Below, one piece after another: positions 49,686-64,000 of a DNA stretch of 64,000 bases. Source of the stretch: Eledone cirrhosa. Lineage: Eukaryota. The position numbers and the translations under genes are program-made. The notes beneath the pieces are model-generated. The model ran no database searches. It saw only the letters and a program-made list of their open reading frames with translations, and was not told where the DNA came from. Each line of letters opens with the position of its first letter. Positions within the stretch are counted from its first letter, which is position 1. The stretch covers positions 211,730,001-211,794,000 of the forward strand of contig OZ024742.1 of assembly GCA_964016885.1 (NCBI GenBank), written 5' to 3'.

Positions 49686-52600
49686 CATCATCATCATCAT
49701 CAACGTTTAACGTCCGTGTTCCACGCTTGCATGGGTTTGGACGGGGGTAGTCCCACTTGAGGCAAGAGTGATTGTCTTGCTCGCATAGGACTGTCTGGCA
49801 GGTTTTCTACAGTTGGATGCCCTTCCTAACACCAACCACATTTACAGTGTGGGTCTGGGAGGTTTTTACCGTGTTGCCTACACGGCCACATTACAGCGTG
49901 GACTGTGTGTTTTTTTGTCGTGACACCTACACGATCTCATTTGTTTCGGCCTGGATGGCGCGGCACCAACATAACTTTACATAGAACGGGGTGGTGTGGA
50001 TGGGGTGGGGGTGGCGGCGGGAGGGGTGTATTTTGTTAGAGATGCCTACTGGCAAGGCGGGTCTTCTCTGTTACTGAGTACCGCCAAAGGTCACGGTCCA
50101 GTGACATTGTCTTGGAGAGGTGTAAGTGTGTGAGGTCGGAGTTTATCAGCTCATCCCATGTTTTTCTAGGTCTGCCTATTCCGTGGCTACCGTCTATCTT
50201 TATTGCCCTGCACTTTGTAATACAGCTATCGACTTTCATGCGCATCACGTGTCCATACCAACGCAGCCTTCTCTCGAGTAAACAACATCTGATCCCTCTT
50301 ATCTCTAATTTTTTCCTTAGTTCGTTTATGCTTTGCCGTTCACGTATATTACTGTTACACATCCAGCGGAGCATGCAAGCTTCGTTCCTCTCTAGTCTGC
50401 GTATATCCTCTGCACACAATGCCCAGGTCTCACTACCATGCAACATTGCTGTTCGTATGCAGGCATCGTACAACCTGCCTTTCATTTTTAGGGAGAACCC
50501 TTTAGCAGCTAATAGTGGTATAAGCTCTCTGAACTTTTTCCAACCAGTTCTGACTCTAGCTACAGTACTTTCAGAGCACCCTCCCCCACTGCTGATTTTA
50601 TCGCCCAGGTAACGGAAGCTGTCCACTATTTCTATAGAACCCTCTGCGCAATTGAAAGAGCTAGTATTTTGTGGGCACTTGCTGCTACTTATTGCACCAG
50701 AACACCGGCCACATGTAAAGTCTATGTTCTTAGTTAGCTTACCTGTGATCCCACTACATCTTTTATGCACCCATACTTTGCATTTAGGACATAAGATGGA
50801 GTTTCTACCTACGCCTTTCCTACATACCGAGCACGACCATTTCCCAGAAGGGACCGCCGCCTTGTTTTCTTTCCTACAAACTAGAACTTTGGTCTTAGCC
50901 AGGTTAATTTTAAGTCCTTTTGACTCTAGGCCGTGCTTCCATGTTTGGAATTTCTTCTCTAGCTCGGCCATTGATTCCGCTATGAGTGTCAGGTCGTCTG
51001 CGTATAGGAGTTCCCATGGGCAGCCTGTCTTGAACTCCTCTGTTATAGCCTGAGGGCAATAATAAATAGTAGGGGGCTGAGAACAGAGCCCTGATGGACG
51101 CCAACTTTTACGCTAAACTCTTCACTATATTCGTTGTTAATTCTAACCTTGCTGACTGTTTCTTTATACATGGCTTGTATAGCCCTCACAAGCCATTCGT
51201 CAACGCCTAGTTTTCTAAGAGCCCACCAGATAATGGAGCGGGGGACTCTGTCGAAGGCTTTCTCCAGGTCGACAAAAGCTAAGTAGAGGGGTTTACCTTT
51301 AGCTAGGTACTTCTCCTGTAGTTGTCGTACTATGAAAAGAGCGTCTGTGGTGCTTTTGCCTGACACAAACCCGAACTGCATTTCATCTAGATCAATTCTC
51401 TCTCTGATTAGTTGCGCTATTACTTTTTCCGTGACCTTCATGACCTGGTCGATTAATTTAATGCCTCTATAGTTACTCCTATCTAGGGCGTCTCCTTTAC
51501 CCTTATAACAGTTAACGATGATGCTGCTATGCCAGTCCTTCGGAACAACCCCATTCTGTACGACTTGGTTAACTATGCGGGTGACCATGGTGTGTCCCAC
51601 CGTGCCAGATGCCTTCAGCATCTCAGCAACTATTTCCGAAGGCCCAGCCGCCTTACCAGTCTTCATATCCTTGATTGCCTTACTTATTATACTCCCCTCG
51701 ACTAACACTGCTGGTCCCTCTATCGGGTCGATAAGGGGGAGACTGTCTTTCTCCCATTTATTCTCCTCATTTAGTAGCCTTTCATAGTGACACTTCCAAG
51801 CTACCTTCTTATCAGTGTCGGTGATGGCAAGTATGCCATCATCGTTAAGTACACACTTCTCCCCGACAATATCACGGTTTTCCTTGACGCATTGCCTGGC
51901 AATCCTGAACACCTCACGTTTTTGGTCATCGCGTTGTAGAACATGCTTGAACTTTCTTTCCTCAGCTTCCCTTCTTGCTAAGTACACTTCTCTCCTAGCT
52001 TCCCTCCTGGCCACTTGATAGTCTACTCTACTTCCCCCATCCCGCCATACTTTCCAAGCCTGCTTTTTGGCCTTAATTGACCCCTCCACCTTACTGTTCC
52101 ACCACCATGTTACTCTCCTCCTGCCTACAGGCCTGCTCCAGCCACAGACTTCGTCTGTCGCCAACAGCAGGTTTGCTTTCAGAAATTTCCACTGTCCCTC
52201 TATATTGTCCGATTCTAGATGCTCTTCCTTACTGTCGAAAGCATCAAGTAATATGCTTTGAAATTTATTTCTGGCTGTGGGGTCCTTTAGTTTCCATATT
52301 TTCCTCCTGAGGATAGTCCTCTTCTGCTGTCGGGTGCGTCTCGTCCTGACTATGAGGTCGCTAATTATCAGTCTATGTTGGGAGGTGCATTCTTCATGGG
52401 GGAGGGATTTAGTGTTTACAACAGACACTCTGTCACGTCTTCTGGTAAGGATATAATCTACCTGGCTTGTGTGTTCCCCGGATCTATAGGTAATCAGGTG
52501 ATTGTCACGTTTTTTGAAGTTAGTGTTACAGATAGTTAGGTTATTTGCATCACAGTATTCCAGAATTCTGGAGCCTTCCTCATTTCTAGTACCAAACCCA

Positions 52601-53420
52601 TAGCCTCCATGGATTTCGTCATAGCCGTCACAATGTTGTCCAACGTGACCATTTAGGTCGCCTGCAATAATTATATAGTCACTGTCAGATATTTGGGAGG
52701 TAGTTAGCAACAGTGTCTCATAGAATCTGTCTTTTATAGTGCCGGGCAGTCCGGATTGGGGTGCGTACGCAGATATTACTGTCACCGTAGTTCTATTGAG
52801 GACAAGTCTTATTTTAATTTTTTTTATTCTGTCGTTCACTCTATTTACGTCTATTATCTTATCTGCCCACTTTTCTGCTACCATGATTCCTACTCCACCC
52901 AGCCCATCGTCGTTTCCCACCCAGAAAAGCTTATAACATCGTTTTTTACCCTCAATGAATCTAGCAGACCCACCCCTCCACCTGGTCTCTTGAATACAAC
53001 AAACATCGACCTCCTTACGTTCAAGCATTTCTACAACCTCGTTAGCGCGACCCTTTAGGGTGCCTACATTTATGGTACCAACTCTGAAGTTTTGGATTGC
53101 GTTTGGAGGGTGGGGGTGGTGGGGGGCGGGAGGAGATAGGGTTATGTTAGCCATCCGCGGACGAAACAAAGAGGAGTGCTCGCATTGTCGTCCACGAGGT
53201 GAATTTGACTTTAACTTTGGCATTTTCGCTCTGGGCGTCCAGATTTTTCTCTCCCTTCCACTCTCCAGGATTCCGCAGTCCGTCCGTCCATCCATCCATG
53301 CATCATATATCGAAGGCAACCGGGCAAGCGATAGTATAGGCCTCTGGCTTATGATTTGGTCCGCGTAATAATAATAATGGTGATGCGTGGGGGTGGGGGT
53401 GGGGGGCTCTGGCTTATAAT
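49686..53420 (-). mobile_element. Near-intact full-length RTE LINE (one frameshift at ~51050)
   Basis: ORF 51043-53319 (APE to RT) continues in the frame ending at 50036; IIALRL* versus expected IIA.QAITEEF. Confidence 0.95.
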
Positions 53421-53526
53421 AATGGTGGTGATGCGGGGGGGGGGGGGGCTCAGGCTTATGATTGGTCCACGTATTAAGTATGGTGGCGTGTGGGTGCGGG
53501 AGGGAGGGGTGTGGGGTAGCTAGCTG

Positions 53527-53792
53527 GAAGGTTATGAATGTTTAACAAGCGATTTAACAAAAAGCAAAACTGCAAGATTTGTTCTGTTCAATACGACAAA
53601 AACACCGTATTTGAACCTTAAATAGATAACAAAAAAATACAGATTTCGGATTTTGCGAGATTGGATGTTTGTTTGGACTATGTACGGAATTGAGCGTGGA
53701 AATGGAGAGAAGGATTGTACTTTACGATTTACATGAGTCCATCATAGAAATAATTGAAGCAAAAGTGGATAAACATGAAGGAGAACTTATCT

Positions 53793-53823
<31 letters not shown>

Positions 53824-54328
53824 AGCTAAGCGAGAGATAGAGGGGAAGAAAGAGAGGGGGGGGGGAGATAGTGGCTGACCGCAGCCCCCTCGTGGAGAAG
53901 CAAGGAGGGTGAAGGGGTGGATCGGATTTTTGACTTTCAAGTAGCATACTATATATATTTAAAGTAATTTATAAGTAGAATGGGGAGGATTTTGTTGTTT
54001 TTTTGTTTGTTTGAGAATACGATAGAATTAAGGAATTGGACGAATACGATAGAATTAAGATAGAAGGTTATGAATGTTTAACAAGCGATTTAACAAAAAG
54101 CAAAACTGCAAGATTTGTTCTGTTCAATACGACAAAAACACCGTATTTGAACCTTAAATAGATAACAAAAAAATACAGATTTCGGATTTTGCGAGATTGG
54201 ATGTTTGTTTGGACTATGTACGGAATTGAGCGTGGAAATGGAGAGAAGGATTGTACTTTACGATTTACATGAGTCCATCATAGAAATAATTGAAGCAAAA
54301 GTGGATAAACATGAAGGAGAACTTATCT

Positions 54329-54359
<31 letters not shown>

Positions 54360-54424
54360 AGCTAAGCGAGAGATAGAGGGGAAGAAAGAGAGGGGGGGGG
54401 GGAGATAGTGGCTGACCGCAGCCC
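53527..54424. repeat. Near-identical ~360-bp direct repeats upstream of the RTE
   Basis: gaaggttatgaatg...gaccgcagccc at 53527-53887 and 54064-54424. Confidence 0.93.
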
Positions 54425-54458
<34 letters not shown>

Positions 54459-54591
54459 ATATACATACATATATATATATATATACATACATATATATAT
54501 ATATATACATACGTATATATATATATATATATACATACATATATATATATATATATATACATACATATATATATATATATACATACGTATA

Positions 54592-54623
<32 letters not shown>

Positions 54624-54633
54624 CATACGTATA

Positions 54634-54665
<32 letters not shown>

Positions 54666-54673
54666 CATACGTA

Positions 54674-54705
<32 letters not shown>

Positions 54706-54713
54706 CATACATA

Positions 54714-54745
<32 letters not shown>

Positions 54746-54750
54746 CATAC

Positions 54751-54781
<31 letters not shown>

Positions 54782-54787
54782 CATACA

Positions 54788-54819
<32 letters not shown>

Positions 54820-54827
54820 CATACATA

Positions 54828-54907
<80 letters not shown>

Positions 54908-54930
54908 CATACATATATATATATACATAC

Positions 54931-54981
<51 letters not shown>

Positions 54982-55040
54982 CATACATATATATATATAC
55001 ATATATACATATATATATATACATACATATATATATATAC

Positions 55041-55074
<34 letters not shown>

Positions 55075-55099
55075 ATACATATATATATATACATACATA

Positions 55100-55131
<32 letters not shown>

Positions 55132-55135
55132 CATA

Positions 55136-55170
<35 letters not shown>
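54425..55170. repeat. Compound (TA)n/(TACA)n microsatellite
   Basis: Direct inspection. Confidence 0.98.
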
Positions 55171-55172
<2 letters not shown>

Positions 55173-58100
55173 CTATCTATCTATCTAAGGCGGGTAAAAT
55201 TCCCGAGATCCATGGACGAGTTCTCTCCAGCGGTCTCTGTCCCTCATTATCGCTGCCATGTCCTGCGTCTCCAACAGACCAGTGTCTGTCCTTAGGGCAT
55301 CAACATATGTTAACCTTGGTCTTCCTCTTCCAGTGTGTCCATGTAGGGGCTCCCAAAGGAGCACGGAGTGCAATGTCAACTCTGGATGTCGGTGAGCATG
55401 TCCAGCCAACCTCAGTCTCCTCTGTGTCACTTTTGAGCTGACTTTTGGGAGGCTCCCATACAGCTCTGAGTTTTTCATCCTCAGTGTATACTGATTAATG
55501 TTCAGAGCCATCCTCAGCATTCTCGTGTAGCACCCATCCACCATCTGAGTGAGTCTCTTGGTCAGTGTCCAAGTCTCAGACCCACACAGCAGCACAGACT
55601 CCACTACAGCAATGAAGAGGCGGATTTTCAGGTCTCTACGAAGGTCCGACTTCCACACCGATCTCAAGCTGTGGCACGCCGCCCAGGCCTTGCTCTTCCT
55701 CTCAACCACATCATCTTCCGTATTCTCAATCTTTGCTCCCAAATACAGGAAGTCCTCAACCAATTCCAGCGGCTTCCCGCCTACATTAGTGATCCCCTCT
55801 GGCTTCTCAACATTCTCTACCAGATATTTTGTTTTAGTCTCATTCATTCTCAGCCCCACACTCATCGACACAGTCTCAACCTCCCGCATCAAATCCTCTG
55901 CCTCCTTCACTGTATTTGTCACCAAAACTATGTCGTCGGCAAATTCAGCATCCGATACCTTTTTCGCCCCAACTCTCCTGCTCTGAGCCGGTGCTACAGT
56001 AAAGCCAGAGTCCTGGTGTTTCTCCAGTGCAAGGCGCATACAATAGTCCACTACGATGATAAAAAGGTAGGGAGCCAATGTATCTCCCTGGAGCACTCCA
56101 GCCAGTATCTCAAAGAACTCTGTCATCCCATCAGGTATAATGACTTGGGCTTTGGTGTTGGTGTAGAGCAGTGATATCAGGTCCACTATCCTCTTGGGGA
56201 TTCCATAAGCCCGCAAGATCTTCATCAGGCAGTAACGGTCCACAGAATCAAAGGCCTTCCTAAAGTCAATGAAAACCATGACCGCAGGAAGGCACTTTGC
56301 TCTAGCTCCCTCTAATATCCTCCTCAGCATCAGGATGTGACTGGTGGTTGATCTACCCTCTCTGAAGCCGTTCTGGTTGTCCCTGAGCTTCTTCTCCATC
56401 TCAGGCTGGATCCTGTTAAGAATCATCCTGTTGAGGGTCTTTGCCACAAGTGACGTCAGTGAGATCCCCCGGTAGTTGTTGGTGTTAGAGAGATCTCCCT
56501 TCTTTGGCACTGGGACGATGTTACTGATCCTCCACTGATTCGGGGCAACTCCTTTCTCCAGTGCCCTGTTACAGAACCCCAGGATGATATCATCAAAATC
56601 ACACCACTTCATCACCTCTGATGCTACTCCATCTTCTCCATGAGCCTTGCCCTCCTTGATCTTCTTCTTGGCTCTCTGAAGCTCCTCTCTGGTGAAGGGC
56701 TCTGTCTCAACATCCAGTTCCTCAAACAGCCGCCTGATCTCCCCAGTGCTCTGGGCTGTGGAGGGTGGCTCTCCTAGTAGGGTCCTAAAATGGTCCAGCC
56801 ATTTCCTCTTCCTATCCTCGGGCCCCGTTCCCTGGATCTGACTCGAACACCTTTTCTTCCTCCCTGTGATCTCGTTGATGATCATCCAGCTCTCCTTACA
56901 TCCAGATCTGTCAACCGCTCTCTCCACACTTCTGATCTTCTCTATCAGTGCCTCCTCTCTGACCTCAGTGTAAGCGGTACAGAGCTCTTCCCTCATCACC
57001 TCCACAGTCTCCATCCTCTCCTCCGTAGGATCAGCATAGAATTGGTCCCTGGCAGCTTTCAGGTGTTCTCTGGCTGCACACACTTTTGGGTCTGCAGAGC
57101 TGACGTGCTTCCCTTTGTTCTTTTTCCTCGGCACCAGGGTTTCACTTGCTTTCGCCACTGCATTGGTGAAGTGCCCGTACCTCCTCGTCACACTCTCCTC
57201 AGTCCATCCAATCTCTCTCTCCTCTGACTCTCCACACAGAGCACTAAACCTGTTTCTCACTTCCACTGTGAACCTCTCCTGTAGCTTATCATCTTCCTTG
57301 AAAGCTCCCCAGTCATAGATTGTTCTCCGGGGCTGAGCCTTGCTCTTTCTTAAGCTCACGCGGACCTCACTCATAACAAGCCGGTGGTCACTACCCAGTG
57401 TACTGAAATAGCTGTATGGTTCCGTGTTCAGAACACTATTCCGCCACTTTTTCCTCACCAGAATGAAATCAATCTGGGACTTGGACAGGTGCATATCTGA
57501 GATGTAGGTCCACATCTTCCCCAGATTCTTCCTAAACCTTAGGTTGGTCGCCATCAAGTTCGCCTCCAGCAGGGTGTCTCTCAGTAGTCTTCCATTTCGG
57601 TTGGTGTTGTTATGGAAGTACCAGCAAGGATCTTCACTGCCCTCCTTACTCAGATGTGCATTGAAGTCCCCAAAACAAGCAGGATATTGTGTGCCTGAGT
57701 GGTGTTGACAGCTCTACACACTTCCTCATGGAACTCCTCGGCATTCACATCACTGTCCCCCTCGGTTGGACTATAGGCTGAGATGACTGTCAGTCTTGGG
57801 TTTCCATTGAAGGTCACCCTCAACACTCGCGGGGAGATAGGCATTATTTCCCTCACCAACAGATTGGTTTTTGCACTGAACACAAAACCCACTCCTCCTA
57901 CTGCAGCATTTGTTGTGTTCTTCACTGCCGATGTAGTGATGAGCTGGCTCTTCCTCCCGATCATCACACTCCTCACGGGCTCATCGTGTAGAATCCTGTG
58001 TTCTTGGATCGCAAGTATCTGTATACCACTCTCCTCGAACAGATGTCCCAACTCCTCTCTCTTCTCCAGCGTTCGAATAGTCCTCACATTCAAAGTGCCC

Positions 58101-58492
58101 ATTTTGATGGCTCCTCTGCAGGACAAAACTGCATTCTTTATATTTGTCTCAGAGACAGCTGATCCATCATCCACTGGCCCTCTCTGTGGCTCTAAGCCAG
58201 CAGAGTCATAACGACCAGGATGCTCCTTGACAGTGTCATTAGGGGCTCTAACCCTAGTGCTGTTAGATCGACTCTCCATATTTCTTTTCAATGGCTGACA
58301 ATACCTTACCGGCGCCACTCGAATAAGGTATTTATTTAACCCATAAATGGAGCCCTAACAGGTACTACCACCCCGGGCCAGGGCAGACCTGGGAGTCATG
58401 ACAACTAAGGGGTAACTCCATATTCCCCACATCTCCTGAACTCCCGAACTGGAGCCTTGCCACTGGATGTAGTTTAATGTCATACCCAAGAC
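55171..58492 (-). mobile_element. Near-intact full-length RTE-group LINE, second family (~1030 aa if one frameshift is corrected)
   Basis: ORFs 57650-58318 and 55185-57557 joined at a G-run (LG|DFNAH); APE and RT motifs (FADD); stop codon merges into a (TAGA)n tail. Confidence 0.93.
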
Positions 58493-58726
58493 ATATATAT
58501 ATATATACATATATATATATACATACATATATATATATACATACATACATATATATACATACATATATACATATATACATATATATACATACATACATAT
58601 ATATACATATATATATATATACATATATATATATACATACATATATACATATATATACATACATACATATATATACATATACATACATACATATACATAC
58701 ATACATACATATATATACATACATAC

Positions 58727-58803
<77 letters not shown>

Positions 58804-58848
58804 CATATATATATATACATACATATATATATATACATACATATATAC

Positions 58849-58911
<63 letters not shown>

Positions 58912-59033
58912 CATATATATATATACATATATATATATACATACATATATATATATACATACATATATATATATACATATATACATATATATATATATAC
59001 ATATATATATACATATATATATATACATACATA

Positions 59034-59099
<66 letters not shown>

Positions 59100-59127
59100 T
59101 ATATACATATATATATATACATACATA

Positions 59128-59220
<93 letters not shown>

Positions 59221-59297
59221 ACATACATATACATACATATATATATATACATACATATATATATATACATACATACATATATATACATACATACATA

Positions 59298-59329
<32 letters not shown>

Positions 59330-59500
59330 CATATATATATATACATACATACATATATATACATACATACATATATATATATACATACATATATATATAT
59401 ACATACATATATATATATACATACATATATATATATACATACATATATATATATACATACATATATATATATACATACATACATACATACATATATATAC

Positions 59501-59579
<79 letters not shown>

Positions 59580-59627
59580 CATATATATATATACATACAT
59601 ATATATACATATATATATATATACATA

Positions 59628-59668
<41 letters not shown>
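58493..59668. repeat. Compound (TA)n/(TACA)n microsatellite
   Basis: Direct inspection. Confidence 0.98.
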
Positions 59669-59754
59669 AACTTTGAATAACTTTGAAATGTTTTGGCCAG
59701 TATTGGCCCAGGCCATGTCTAACTTAATAGCACCACCTGGCGAAGTCTTTCAAT

Positions 59755-62700
59755 TCAGGATTTGGGCACCATGGCCCATTCGAGAAGAGAATTACTGTTT
59801 GCGGAGACATATCCGGGTGTGGGTGGTTTGTCCGGGATTACTTGGAGGAATTTGTCCAAAGACTTCTTGAATTTTGTGTGGTCAGTTTCTGTTTTGACGT
59901 GTCCTGGTGTGATGTTGAAGAGAGCAGGGCCGATTGAGGTGAAATAATTGTGCCGTATTGTTGTTATGAGTTGCGATTTAGATTTTTGAATGGGACGGAT
60001 AGCACGGGGCCCAAGCCTTGGGTGTATCTTGAAGGCGATGCCAACATCATTTGGGCAGTGATGATGGAACATTTTCCACATCATGCAGATAATATAACGC
60101 TCACGGCGACGTTGGAGTGAGTAAAGTTTCAGGTTTTCCAATCGACCCCAGTAGTCAAGGTCTGACATGCCATCTATCTTTTTCGTGATTGCCCTTTGAG
60201 GAGCTTCAAGTTTCATGATACTTTGTTTCGTGTGGGGAGACCACAGTGGACAACAGTATTCAAGGTGTGGTCGGGCGAAAGTAGAGAAGAGAAGGATAAT
60301 GGTGCGGGAATCTCTCGACTGGAAGGTTCTGAGGATCCAGGAACACATTCTGCGGGCCATGTCAACTTTGCTGCTTATATGCGTGGTCCAGCTTATATTG
60401 CTGTCCACGGTTACTCCCAAGTCTCTGATGTTGTTAGATGCCACGAGAGTTTCCCCGGAGGGAAGGGAGTACGGGAGTTTCAGAGCCTCCTCTTTTCCAA
60501 AGTGGATCAGTTCGAATTTGTCTTTGTTCAGTAACATGTTGTTCTTTTCTGCCCATTGGGTAACAGCCAGTAGGTCTGACTGAAGGCTTATCCGGTCATC
60601 CACGCCATTGATGACCTTTTGGAGCTTGGAATCATCAGCGAAAATTTTAATGTTGCTGTGTTTGATGATGTCAGTGATGTCATTAATATAGATGATGAAG
60701 AGAAGTGGGCCCAGCACAGTGCCTTGTGGGACTCCACTACTGACTTTGGCTGGGCTTGATTTGACTCCCTCAACTACAATATGTTGGGTTCTGTTTGACA
60801 GGAAGCTCTTGATCCACTGCAGCAGCTTTCCAGTGACACCAATATTGGACAGCTTTCTCAGTAGAATGTTATGATCAACCCTGTCAAAGGCCTTGCTGAA
60901 ATCAAGGTAGATAACATCAGTGTTGGAACCCTCTCCCAAGGCTCTCAAAATGTCATCAAAGTGATGCAGTAGTTGCGTCAGGCAATCCCTTCCATTACGG
61001 AATCCATGCTGGTTGGAGTTCAGCATATTGTTACTCTCAAGGAAGTGGGTCATTCGCGATCTCACCACTCGCTCAAATACCTTAATGATATGAGAGGTGA
61101 GTGAGATTGGACGGTAATTCACGGCAAGGGATTTGTTTCCCTTTTTGAAAACTGGGACAACAGACTGGGATAGAAGGTTTTCTGGCACATATCCAGCATC
61201 CAGTGAGTTCCGCCACAGATTGGCAAGAGGAGAAGCAAGTTGGTGTTGACACGCCTTCAAGACACAAGCAGGGAACCTATCGGGACCTACTGCTGAATTA
61301 TGCTTGATTTCCTTTATTGCCGCCAAGACATCAGGGGCGCCAAACGTTATGTCCGATAAGGTGTAATGGGGAGTAACATCGCCGATACAGCCCAGATCGG
61401 CCATATCAGGATTGCTGAAAACAGAGCAGTATTGTTTCTGCAGTATCTCACCCATGGTTTTAGCATTGTCTTGAAGAGTGCCATTTTCATCAATTAGAGG
61501 GCCAACAGTAGAGCCAGTGATTTTGTGTTTTTTTGCAAATGAAAAGAACACTTTGGGATTGAGTTTGATCTTCTCAATGGCCCAGGCCTCTTCAGCTCTT
61601 CTCTGATTGTTGATGAGGGACATTATGTTGTTTTGGAGGTTATGTTTTTTAATCTCTAGTGATGAAATGGCAGTCAAGTTGATGTGTTGCTGCTGACAGT
61701 ATTTCAGCTTGTTGATTTTTTTGTTCGTTCTCTTAATTTTTCTGATGAGCGTTTTTCTATTTCTAGGGATTCTGCTCTTAGATTTGTTTATAGTTCTTAA
61801 TGGGGTGTGTTTAGCACATATGTTTGTAACAGTGTCCACAAATGTCTGCCAGGACTTTTTGATGTTAGTGGGTGTATGAGTGTGCGTGAAGGACCAGTCG
61901 ACATGTGCAAGATCATGACTGATCGCTTCCCAGTTTGCATTGTGGAAATCCATAGCGTCAAACGGATGGACAGGAGAGATGACATTGGGTTTGTATATTG
62001 GACGGTGGAATCTCAGATCACAGAGAACCATGTCATGATCAGAGAGTAGAGTTTTCTCCACTGCAATATTGTGGATATTGTCAGTGTGATTGCTGAAAAT
62101 TAAGTCTAGGACGTTTTTGTGGCACCTCGTTGGTTCGAGCACTAGTTGGGATAGGAAGAAATCATCCATGAAGTCAAGAAGCGATTCCACAGCTTCCCTG
62201 TCAGAGGTTGAGGCAGAAGAACCTGGTGGCAGGGTGTTTGTGGACCAGTCAACTCCGGGGAGGTTGAAGTCCCCCATCATTAAGATGTTGTCAGGGTGAC
62301 ACTCTTGGATGAAACACTTTATGCTGTTGAGGCATTCCTTGAAGCATGGTACAGGCGTTTGGGGTGGCCTATAGAGCCCAACTACTAATAGGTTGTTGGT
62401 TTGACTGAATACAGTGACTGCCTCACAGTATCCATTAGTGAATATGTTCATAGCCTCTGTTGAGAAAGAATTATGGACATAAATGGCAGTTCCGCCCTTT
62501 CTTCTGCCAGCGCGATCAGCACGGATGGCTTTGAAATTTTTCACTTTCACCTCGGCTTCCAAGTGGAGGTTACTGAGATGGGTTTCAGTGAGGACGAAGA
62601 AAGGGATGTGGTTTGGATGGACATCAATCCAGTCCTCCAGGAATTTGATCTTCCATTTTTGAGTATTGGTGGAAGGGCTGATGCCTTGGGCGTTAAGCAA

Positions 62701-62874
62701 AAATGTAGAGGCGAGAGTGGATGGTTTTAATTGTTTTGGTGTGTTGTTAATTTGTTTGTTTGTTAATGGCAGCAATGGGAGTTTGTGCAGTGGGGTGATA
62801 GTGGAGGGTGGTGCTGGGTGATAGCTCGAATGTTTTTTTCCAGTTCTTTTGCCAGATTCATTATGGCTAAAAAA
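59755..62874 (-). CDS. LINE ORF2: APE endonuclease + reverse transcriptase, intact, no upstream AUG
   Basis: Open from 62892 to stop at 59755; [41 protein letters not shown] and [10 protein letters not shown] motifs. Confidence 0.93.
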
Positions 62875-63895
62875 GAGGAAGAAGTTTCCTGTTTAGAAGA
62901 CTGTTGGTGACTGTGGTAGTGGTTATTTTTATGTAGGTTATGGTTTTTGTTTTTGCTTTTATTTTTAATTTTATTTTCATTTATCCGACGGGTCCCCGGG
63001 AGATGGGTAAAGAGACAATCCCGGTCTAAACACAATCTGTCTCGCAGGGAAAAACGGCAGATTTGTGGATTCCTTGTTTGGTGTTAAATTAGAGTATGTA
63101 TTATGGTGGTGGCTGTTTGTGGGGATAGATCGTTTTGTCCTAGGTAAATGGGTGAATTTGCAGCCACTATCCGTACATATTCTATAGCGTAGAGAGTAGC
63201 GGCAAATGATGGGGTTTCGAGTGGGTGGGTATGTGGGTGTGGGTGTTGTGAGAGGTGTAGATGATGGTTTGGGTAGGATTTGACGACCTTTGTGGACTGT
63301 GGGAGGGAGTGTTCTTGTTCTGGTATTAGAAGGTAAATTCCTTGACATAGCAGTAGACAAAAATGTTGTAGTAGTAGTAGTAGGCAGAGATGTTGGCAGT
63401 GGTGATGATTGGACTGCTGGGCCAGAGAAAGGATGTGGCGTTTCATGCTGTGAGACAGAGGCTACTGGGGGGATCAATAGTTTCATTTAGTAGATCGGCC
63501 ATTGTTGATGAATCAAGGAGTGGTTCACACTGTTGTTGTCGTTGTTGTTGTTGTTGCTGTAGCTGTTGTTGTTGTTGTTGTTGTAGCTGTTGTTGTTGTT
63601 GCTGTTGTAGCTGCTGTTGTTGTTGTTGCTGCTGCTGGACAGCATTCGAAGAGAAAACACACCGTAGTTTATCCAAATGTTTATTGATTAATTTAAAAGC
63701 AATTTCGATTTGCTTTAATTTATTTTGAATCTGTTGTTCAGATCGAGTTTTCAAAAATTGAACTGTACGTTTAGCAATGTCGTTCAGAGATGAAGCATCT
63801 ATATTTTCTGTTTGGAAAAGGCAATGCCATGTGTTTATTAGAATGTCGATTTCATTATCAGACCAGTTCTGTTTGGATTTTTGCTGGTTAGCCAT
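62763..63895 (-). CDS. LINE ORF1 (~376 aa after correcting two +1 homopolymer indels): Myb/SANT-like, poly-Q, two CCCH fingers
   Basis: Three consecutive ORF pieces join at a C6 run (~63470) and an A3 run (~63078); duplicated TRNPxICRxSLRxRxCxDxxCxFTHLPxT motif. Confidence 0.75.
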
Positions 63896-63940
63896 TCTAG
63901 TTTTGAGTGTGTGTGTGTTTTAGTTATTTATATATATATG

Positions 63941-64000
<60 letters not shown>

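Follow-up and report, generated by a model that had tools for sequence, protein, structure and literature searches.

A LINE of Eledone cirrhosa whose ORF1 combines a Myb/SANT-like head with two CCCH fingers and is predicted to join ORF2 by -1 frameshifting

Can the first protein of a LINE carry a DNA-binding head that takes part in choosing where the element inserts? The question is raised by a locus in Eledone cirrhosa (contig OZ024742.1, assembly GCA_964016885.1), analysed here as a window of 64,000 nucleotides to which all positions refer. On the minus strand, the region from 63895 to 62763 consists of three frame segments upstream of an open frame of 1045 codons. An earlier note, made from the letters alone, had read these segments as one broken ORF1 with a Myb/SANT-like N-terminal domain, a glutamine tract and tandem CCCH zinc fingers, and had proposed that fusion to ORF2 by frameshift could tether the endonuclease to targets such as TA repeats.

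The element lies on the minus strand between a TA/TACA microsatellite at its 3′ junction, the target array (58480..59669, from reading the sequence), and another at its 5′ junction (63931..64000) that extends at least 1.4 kb past the window. This copy is 5′-truncated, with about 35 nt of the 5′ UTR left (63896..63930); in full-length copies the 5′ UTR measures about 420-940 nt and contains tandem units. ORF1 (62763..63895) begins with an ATG at 63895 and ends with a stop at 62763-62765. ORF2 (59755..62892, 1045 codons, in the -1 frame relative to ORF1) encodes an APE endonuclease and a reverse transcriptase (Pfam E 6.7e-14 and 2.8e-31, respectively; PF14529, PF03372 and PF00078 are matched above cut-off), and its first methionine is residue 148, within the endonuclease. 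The 3′ UTR (59670..59754) terminates in a short tandem decamer tail ending in TA, with no poly(A). This tail is present in all 20 full-length copies, and truncated 5′ ends are seen among copies. LINEs of the CR1 lineage have short-tandem-repeat 3′ ends, lack poly(A) and are frequently 5′-truncated. We therefore take the element to be CR1-type, an assignment that draws on familiar ORF2 motifs and the tail rather than on placement against named references. In the window, this copy and an RTE-like LINE are nested in one TA-array run (54420-59670 and 63931 onward). A third LINE lies at 51043-53541, and the same run splits its duplicated 5′ unit (53520-53880 and 54060-54420).

The window copy belongs to a family, hereafter family A, that is young and abundant. 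A genome search returned 2026 candidates, of which the 40 scored are 94-100% identical; with the 84 N-terminal residues as the query there are 908, of which all 150 scored are at least 96% identical. Thirty ORF1 loci were fetched, one being the window copy itself; ORF1 is intact in 28 of the other 29 and encodes 382-389 aa, so the corrected protein of 376 aa expected in the earlier note does not correspond to natural copies. Among 20 full-length copies, ORF1 is open in 20, ORF2 in 18 and both in 18, counts that lean towards intact copies as these were taken from the top hits. The two breaks in the window copy differ in kind. Break 1 (63467..63472) is, as had been noted, a single surplus base in a homopolymer, a G6 run, and the surplus is visible too against the contigs of sequencing run X1. 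Break 2 (63075..63085, position approximate), for which the same had been claimed, is instead a 20-nt deletion relative to the natural copy L034. This deletion rules out sequencing error as the source of the ORF1 breaks, and the window therefore holds a decayed copy rather than unpolished sequence. The summed contig depth of run X1 is about 10,000 over 62829-63063, compared with 200-400 for the remaining ORF1. A high-copy derivative of the finger-2 region finds no support in the assembly, where that region returns 777 candidates and the head 908.

The start codon and the N-terminal segment agree with the earlier reading, and the resemblance of that segment to Myb/SANT-like domains is above chance. 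The trihelix-type three-helix domain occupies 63674..63871 (minus strand; ORF1 residues 9-74), its extended helix continuing to about residue 84. Queried alone, the window domain matches the Pfam profile PF13837 with E 2.5e-5 and 25.0 bits, just under the curated cut-off of 27; with a 150-aa segment as the query, E is 2e-4. The profile is found at E<=1 in 15 of 18 aligned head domains, and 7 of 13 relatives scanned exceed the 27-bit cut-off. An AlphaFold model built from a single sequence is poor (pLDDT 70, pTM 0.39), and a fold search with it matched nothing HTH-like. The model built from 18 sequences reaches pLDDT 83.7 and pTM 0.69, with helices at residues 10-26, 31-42 and 50-69. With this model, Foldseek returns no match at E<=0.001, homeodomains filling eight of the top nine rows, and the seven best VIA-align matches are homeodomain HTHs (Z 6.9-7.7; the best at Z 7.7, rmsd 2.1, 64 residues aligned), followed at lower ranks by the GT-1 trihelix (Z 5.9) and Zeste (Z 5.4), none attaining Z 8. 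The structural check that the earlier note had suggested thus gives a predicted three-helix HTH with HTH proteins at the top ranks, at Z under 8. A sequence-profile search of the PDB with the head gave 13 matches at E<=10, no Myb protein among them; it also matched helix 3-4 weakly to coiled coils (E 0.1-0.2).

The segment is not peculiar to the window copy. It is found in young copies and in older subfamilies of the genome, which retain the head at 50-60% identity, and the head is under purifying selection (dN/dS 0.16 between the young and an older subfamily, over 73 of 77 codons); the endonuclease gives 0.11 in this comparison. Outside this genome, scanning 1.84 billion representative sequences for the head by HMMER gave three matches, unnamed and without context, in which the head is retained. 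A word-based homologue search with residues 1-90 gave no match among 10 candidates, and a metagenome scan gave one locus that, at 23% identity, is uninformative. Profile, fold and selection agree, and the head is therefore very probably, as far as a predicted model can tell, a true three-helix HTH of the Myb/SANT type, from which we infer DNA binding.

The host genome itself has five loci with PF13837 over cut-off (L276-L280), and a profile of the ORF1 head, searched against a small six-frame set, matches three of the five weakly (E 3e-4 to 2e-3). The start of the domain at L278 is much like that of the ORF1 head, making this locus a possible relative of the donor. The ORF1 head shares its profile match with host proteins of PF13837 such as trihelix GT-1 and Zeste. 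It differs from them in that the tryptophan of helix 3 is replaced by leucine or arginine, and in being carried by a retrotransposon.

Behind the head, the glutamine tract put at about 35 residues is found to have 36, of which 32 are Gln (63530..63637, minus strand; residues 87-122). Its length differs between copies, and a related family described below (family B) has an E/K-rich tract in its place; it is therefore probably a spacer. The P/T/S linker and two C-x8-C-x4-C-x3-H motifs are likewise present in the window sequence. Finger 1 lies at 63148..63204 and its duplicate, finger 2, which shares about 66% identity with it, at 63003..63059, both on the minus strand. Pfam matches of the fingers fall under cut-off (zf-C3H1 E 0.001, zf-CCCH_2 E 0.006), and a word-based search with the finger region found a single match (P0005) among seven candidates. 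Both motifs are nonetheless retained in older subfamilies; dN/dS for finger 1 is 0.08 between the young and an older subfamily, the synonymous sites of finger 2 being saturated. CCCH proteins have a known role in RNA binding, and by analogy the ORF1 fingers probably bind RNA as well. Against Pfam at E<=10, ORF1 has no RRM, CCHC, Tnp22, PHD or esterase match; the N-terminal domain is all-helical and the remainder is of low complexity. The C-terminal end of ORF1 carries a His-Cys-Cys-His arrangement in family A and Cys-Cys-Cys in family B.

The combination of a Myb-like domain and two CCCH fingers was not found described as an ORF1 in the literature searched, of which Repbase reports and most subscription journals formed no part. 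In the portion available of a survey of 448 Jockey-group elements (Metcalfe & Casane, 2014; PMC4120745), the tabled ORF1 modules are RRM, CCHC, PHD, Tnp22, esterase and zf/lz, with neither Myb nor CCCH, in keeping with the earlier claim of an architecture beyond the five published types. The accessible parts of PMC13343379, PMC5203782, PMC9115989, PMC11203168, PMC6859323 and PMC13282606 make no mention of it either. Judging by what is given in PMC4120745, the present element shares with CR1/L2 ORF1 types I-V the two-ORF APE-RT plan and a modular ORF1 with a swappable N-terminal chromatin module. The window ORF1 differs in having no RRM or CCHC by Pfam and would fall into type V (unclassified). 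That source also records a chromatin-type head (PHD) in CR1 ORF1s, and notes that its function has not been studied.

Related elements in the same genome carry either kind of head. Two further families were found with a distant ORF2 relative (P0021) as the query, which yielded 20 loci. Family B (L208-L219) is young and CR1-type, and its ORF1 has a Myb-like head, a charged tract and one CCCH finger; its tail consists of 8-nt tandem units. The head of family B matches PF13837 below the 27-bit cut-off (E 0.004-0.015, 16-18 bits), and the heads of A and B are homologous (HHalign 95.8%, E 8e-9, 32% identity over 71 columns). The survey of related elements proposed in the earlier note thus finds the Myb-like head in older A subfamilies and in family B. 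Family C (L200-L207 and L220-L249) is equally young, with copies 99% identical, and has a pentamer tail. Its head is PHD-like (E 0.021, under cut-off) and resembles the PHD heads reported for subgroups CR1_2/4/6 in the part of PMC4120745 at hand. Three CCCH fingers are recognizable by eye in family C, the third spaced like the pair of family A; one open ORF1 was seen (L204). Two further queries for CR1 families in the genome returned family A alone, so the sample stays at three.

The ORF2s do not follow the heads. ORF2 identity is 37% for A-B, 39% for A-C and 41% for B-C, and that of the endonuclease is 32% for A-B and 38% for B-C. ORF2 trees (21 rows) place A separately from B and C. Monophyly of A and B is rejected on ORF2 (p-AU 7e-71; 16 rows, with two long branches and three near-duplicates dropped) and likewise when the endonuclease is analysed by itself (p-AU 1.3e-6). 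As the heads of A and B are homologous while their ORF2s are not sisters, the head was either swapped, or ancestral and then replaced in C.

Insertion targets were scored on the first 50 nt beyond the tail, and the background was taken from 19,900 windows in 20 evenly spread stretches of 10 kb. The 3′ flank is TA-rich in 19 of 20 copies of family A, compared with 6.1% of the background, in all 12 copies of family B, and in 3 of 30 copies of the PHD-headed family C, two of which share one flank. By eye, a TA run follows 13 of the 14 older A copies for which a 3′ end was found among 20 fetched, and TA repeats lie directly 5′ of 7 of 8 A copies with a 5′ terminal motif. Young copies (L031-L050) sit in kilobase-long compound TA/TACA arrays and older ones (L256-L275) mostly in short pure TA runs; the arrays may expand when the element inserts and contract afterwards. 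Among the three CR1 families, TA preference tracks the head and not the endonuclease tree, a correlation whose effective sample is three families. Together with that correlation stands a control, the neighbouring LINE at 55170-58470, which we take from familiar motifs to be RTE-like. In its window copy the endonuclease ORF is preceded by just about 190 nt, with no such ORF1, yet 21 of 30 copies have a TA flank (Fisher p 0.037 against A). A Myb head is therefore unnecessary for TA preference. Tethering to TA repeats, as originally proposed, is thus plausible and gains a real correlation across three families that does not follow endonuclease phylogeny. TA is favoured, however, even by a LINE lacking this ORF1, and microhomology of the 3′ tail would account for the pattern too. 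That the Myb head contributes to TA targeting can be held only tentatively, at a little less than an even chance.

The strongest alternative accepts the architecture and the frameshift as real and derives TA targeting from the endonuclease together with pairing of a TA-ending tail to the nicked target, the head being otherwise employed. The tails of A, B and the control LINE end in or run into TA, unlike that of C, so the same pattern is expected from tail-target pairing, which looks an equal rival. The control LINE favours TA without any such ORF1, and in the part of PMC4494074 available, target choice is set mainly by the endonuclease. The Tx1-clade elements Kibi and Koshi treated there are also APE-type LINEs inserting in simple repeats; unlike the present element they belong to another clade, and their (TC)n/(TTC)n targets are credited to the endonuclease. 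The head might instead dock on chromatin in place of a PHD finger, bind the TA-containing 5′ UTR of the element itself, or oligomerize through its long third helix. The second of these agrees with the internal TA runs in the 5′ UTR of family A, and the third with the weak coiled-coil matches of helix 3-4. The 5′ UTR tandem unit, seen upstream of ORF1 in L009, L017, L022 and L030, is about 250 nt long, and the truncation point of many copies falls at its TA runs or close to them. Against this alternative, the endonucleases of the TA-targeting families A and B are not sisters, which requires TA specificity to have arisen twice, each time with the same head, and both families are stricter for TA than the control LINE. 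On this evidence the alternative is possible but somewhat doubtful.

The ORF1-ORF2 joint offers a way in which the head could be attached to the endonuclease. In families A, B and C alike, ORF2 lies in the -1 frame and has no AUG ahead of the endonuclease; in family A about 130 nt are shared with ORF1, although the -1 frame is kept in only 26 of 35 mostly decayed copies having both anchors. The overlap of each family contains an in-frame U_UUU_UUA heptamer in a like position, followed by G. In the window it lies at 62868..62874 on the minus strand, six codons past the stop that opens the ORF2 frame, and is the predicted -1 frameshift site. The HIV shift site is given as the same heptamer in the available part of PMC5009743. 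All 29 young copies of family A carry the heptamer, as do 34 of the 40 older copies in which the junction could be located, out of 55 inspected. Given Phe-Leu, the chance of these heptamer codons is 0.35-0.7% per family under ORF2 codon use. Against the site speaks that each of these ORF1s has one to four further canonical heptamers in frame at other places. A second in-frame heptamer, A_AAA_AAC (62832..62838, minus strand), is absent from most older copies. Between A subfamilies, synonymous differences (pS) amount to 0.63-0.85 outside the overlap and 0.41 over 21 overlap codons. As the families share ancestry, the argument from the heptamer rests on its retention across saturated synonymous sites. 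With the in-frame heptamer conserved in three families whose ORF2s are 37-41% identical, and ORF2 lacking an AUG, fusion of ORF1 to ORF2 by a predicted -1 frameshift, as suggested in the earlier note, is likely. The literature searched holds nothing on a slippery sequence in CR1 ORF2, nor on CR1 at TA repeats.

Alternatively, ORF2 could be made separately after the ORF1 stop, by AUG-independent re-initiation or from a near-cognate start, in which case the head would never be joined to the endonuclease and the heptamer would be kept for some other reason. Human L1 translates its ORF2 independently of AUG, and several database relatives of ORF2 are annotated with a methionine just ahead of the endonuclease, although these are predicted starts. 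A search for a 3′ stimulatory RNA structure downstream of the heptamer, covering simple pseudoknot-free folds, also found none above shuffles in four of four sequences (z 0.63, 0.19, -0.17 and -0.68). However, separate translation does not account for the retention of the exact synonymous heptamer codons despite saturated divergence. Nor does it explain why the -1 frame, closed 2-26 codons before the heptamer, is open from there to the endonuclease in A, B and C, where the overlaps span 25-72 codons, or why length differences of the overlap between A subfamilies are mostly frame-keeping. Separate synthesis of ORF2 is accordingly unlikely.

Two further observations concern the joint. A hairpin enclosing the slippery heptamer (window 62850-62880) is predicted in young and older A copies, with raw folding energies of -13.5 and -14.4 kcal/mol, and not clearly in B or C. 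Six copies with long frames were inspected for in-frame fusion: four lack the junction motif, one is normal, and one has an extra base in an A-run. In this last copy, L255, the extra base in the overlap gives an in-frame ORF1-endonuclease reading of 736 codons, a lone case that is not counted as evidence.

A last account attributes the TA flanks to survival, to seeding by the tail or to a bias of the assembly instead of targeting. It is very improbable, for although TA-like DNA makes up 6% of the genome sample and copies were picked as top hits, TA occurs on both sides of the element, lying 5′ in 7 of the 8 copies that have the terminal motif, and the equally young family C lies mostly outside TA.

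The explanation that we provisionally prefer, while granting it slightly less than half of our confidence, is that a Myb-like head is joined to the endonuclease by frameshifting and helps to steer the element to TA repeats. Most ribosomes would then produce ORF1p alone, consisting of head, spacer, fingers and a short tail, which likely packages the element RNA via its CCCH fingers. A minority would likely shift to the -1 frame and yield an ORF1-EN-RT fusion, whose head would dock on TA-rich DNA. The endonuclease would then cut close by, and reverse transcription would be primed by the TA-ending tail at the nicked target.

Parallels to this proposal exist in other elements. According to the parts of PMC7998251 that were available, R2 and R4/Dong also have a Myb/SANT-like domain ahead of the reverse transcriptase, and the Dong target (TAA)n is likewise a microsatellite. 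In contrast, they have a single ORF and a restriction-like endonuclease, whereas the element described here has an APE endonuclease and two ORFs, and its head would be joined through the frameshift alone. In Dictyostelium TRE5-A and TRE3-A, as far as PMC5911963 could be consulted, a -1 frameshift leads into ORF2 and ORF1 is implicated in targeting, both as proposed here; however, these elements belong to the L1 group, their ORF1 binds TFIIIB near tRNA genes rather than repeat DNA, and no Myb or CCCH domain is reported in that portion. More speculatively, and with clear reservations, APE-type LINEs may have rebuilt, out of two genes, an R2-like targeting machine of Myb domain, nuclease and reverse transcriptase. 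An exchangeable head on ORF1, of either Myb/SANT or PHD type, would be welded to ORF2 by a conserved -1 frameshift, and its replacement would retarget the element between TA microsatellites and dispersed chromatin with the endonuclease unchanged.

If true, these findings would add an ORF1 type to the classification of LINEs and give the PHD and Myb heads of CR1 ORF1s a testable function. An exchange of heads between families with opposite target habits, combined with a joint of seven bases, makes both the translation of an AUG-less ORF2 and the role of ORF1 in the targeting of APE-type LINEs open to experiment. For Eledone cirrhosa itself, family A is young and present in hundreds of near-identical copies, and as such it shapes the microsatellite landscape of the genome.
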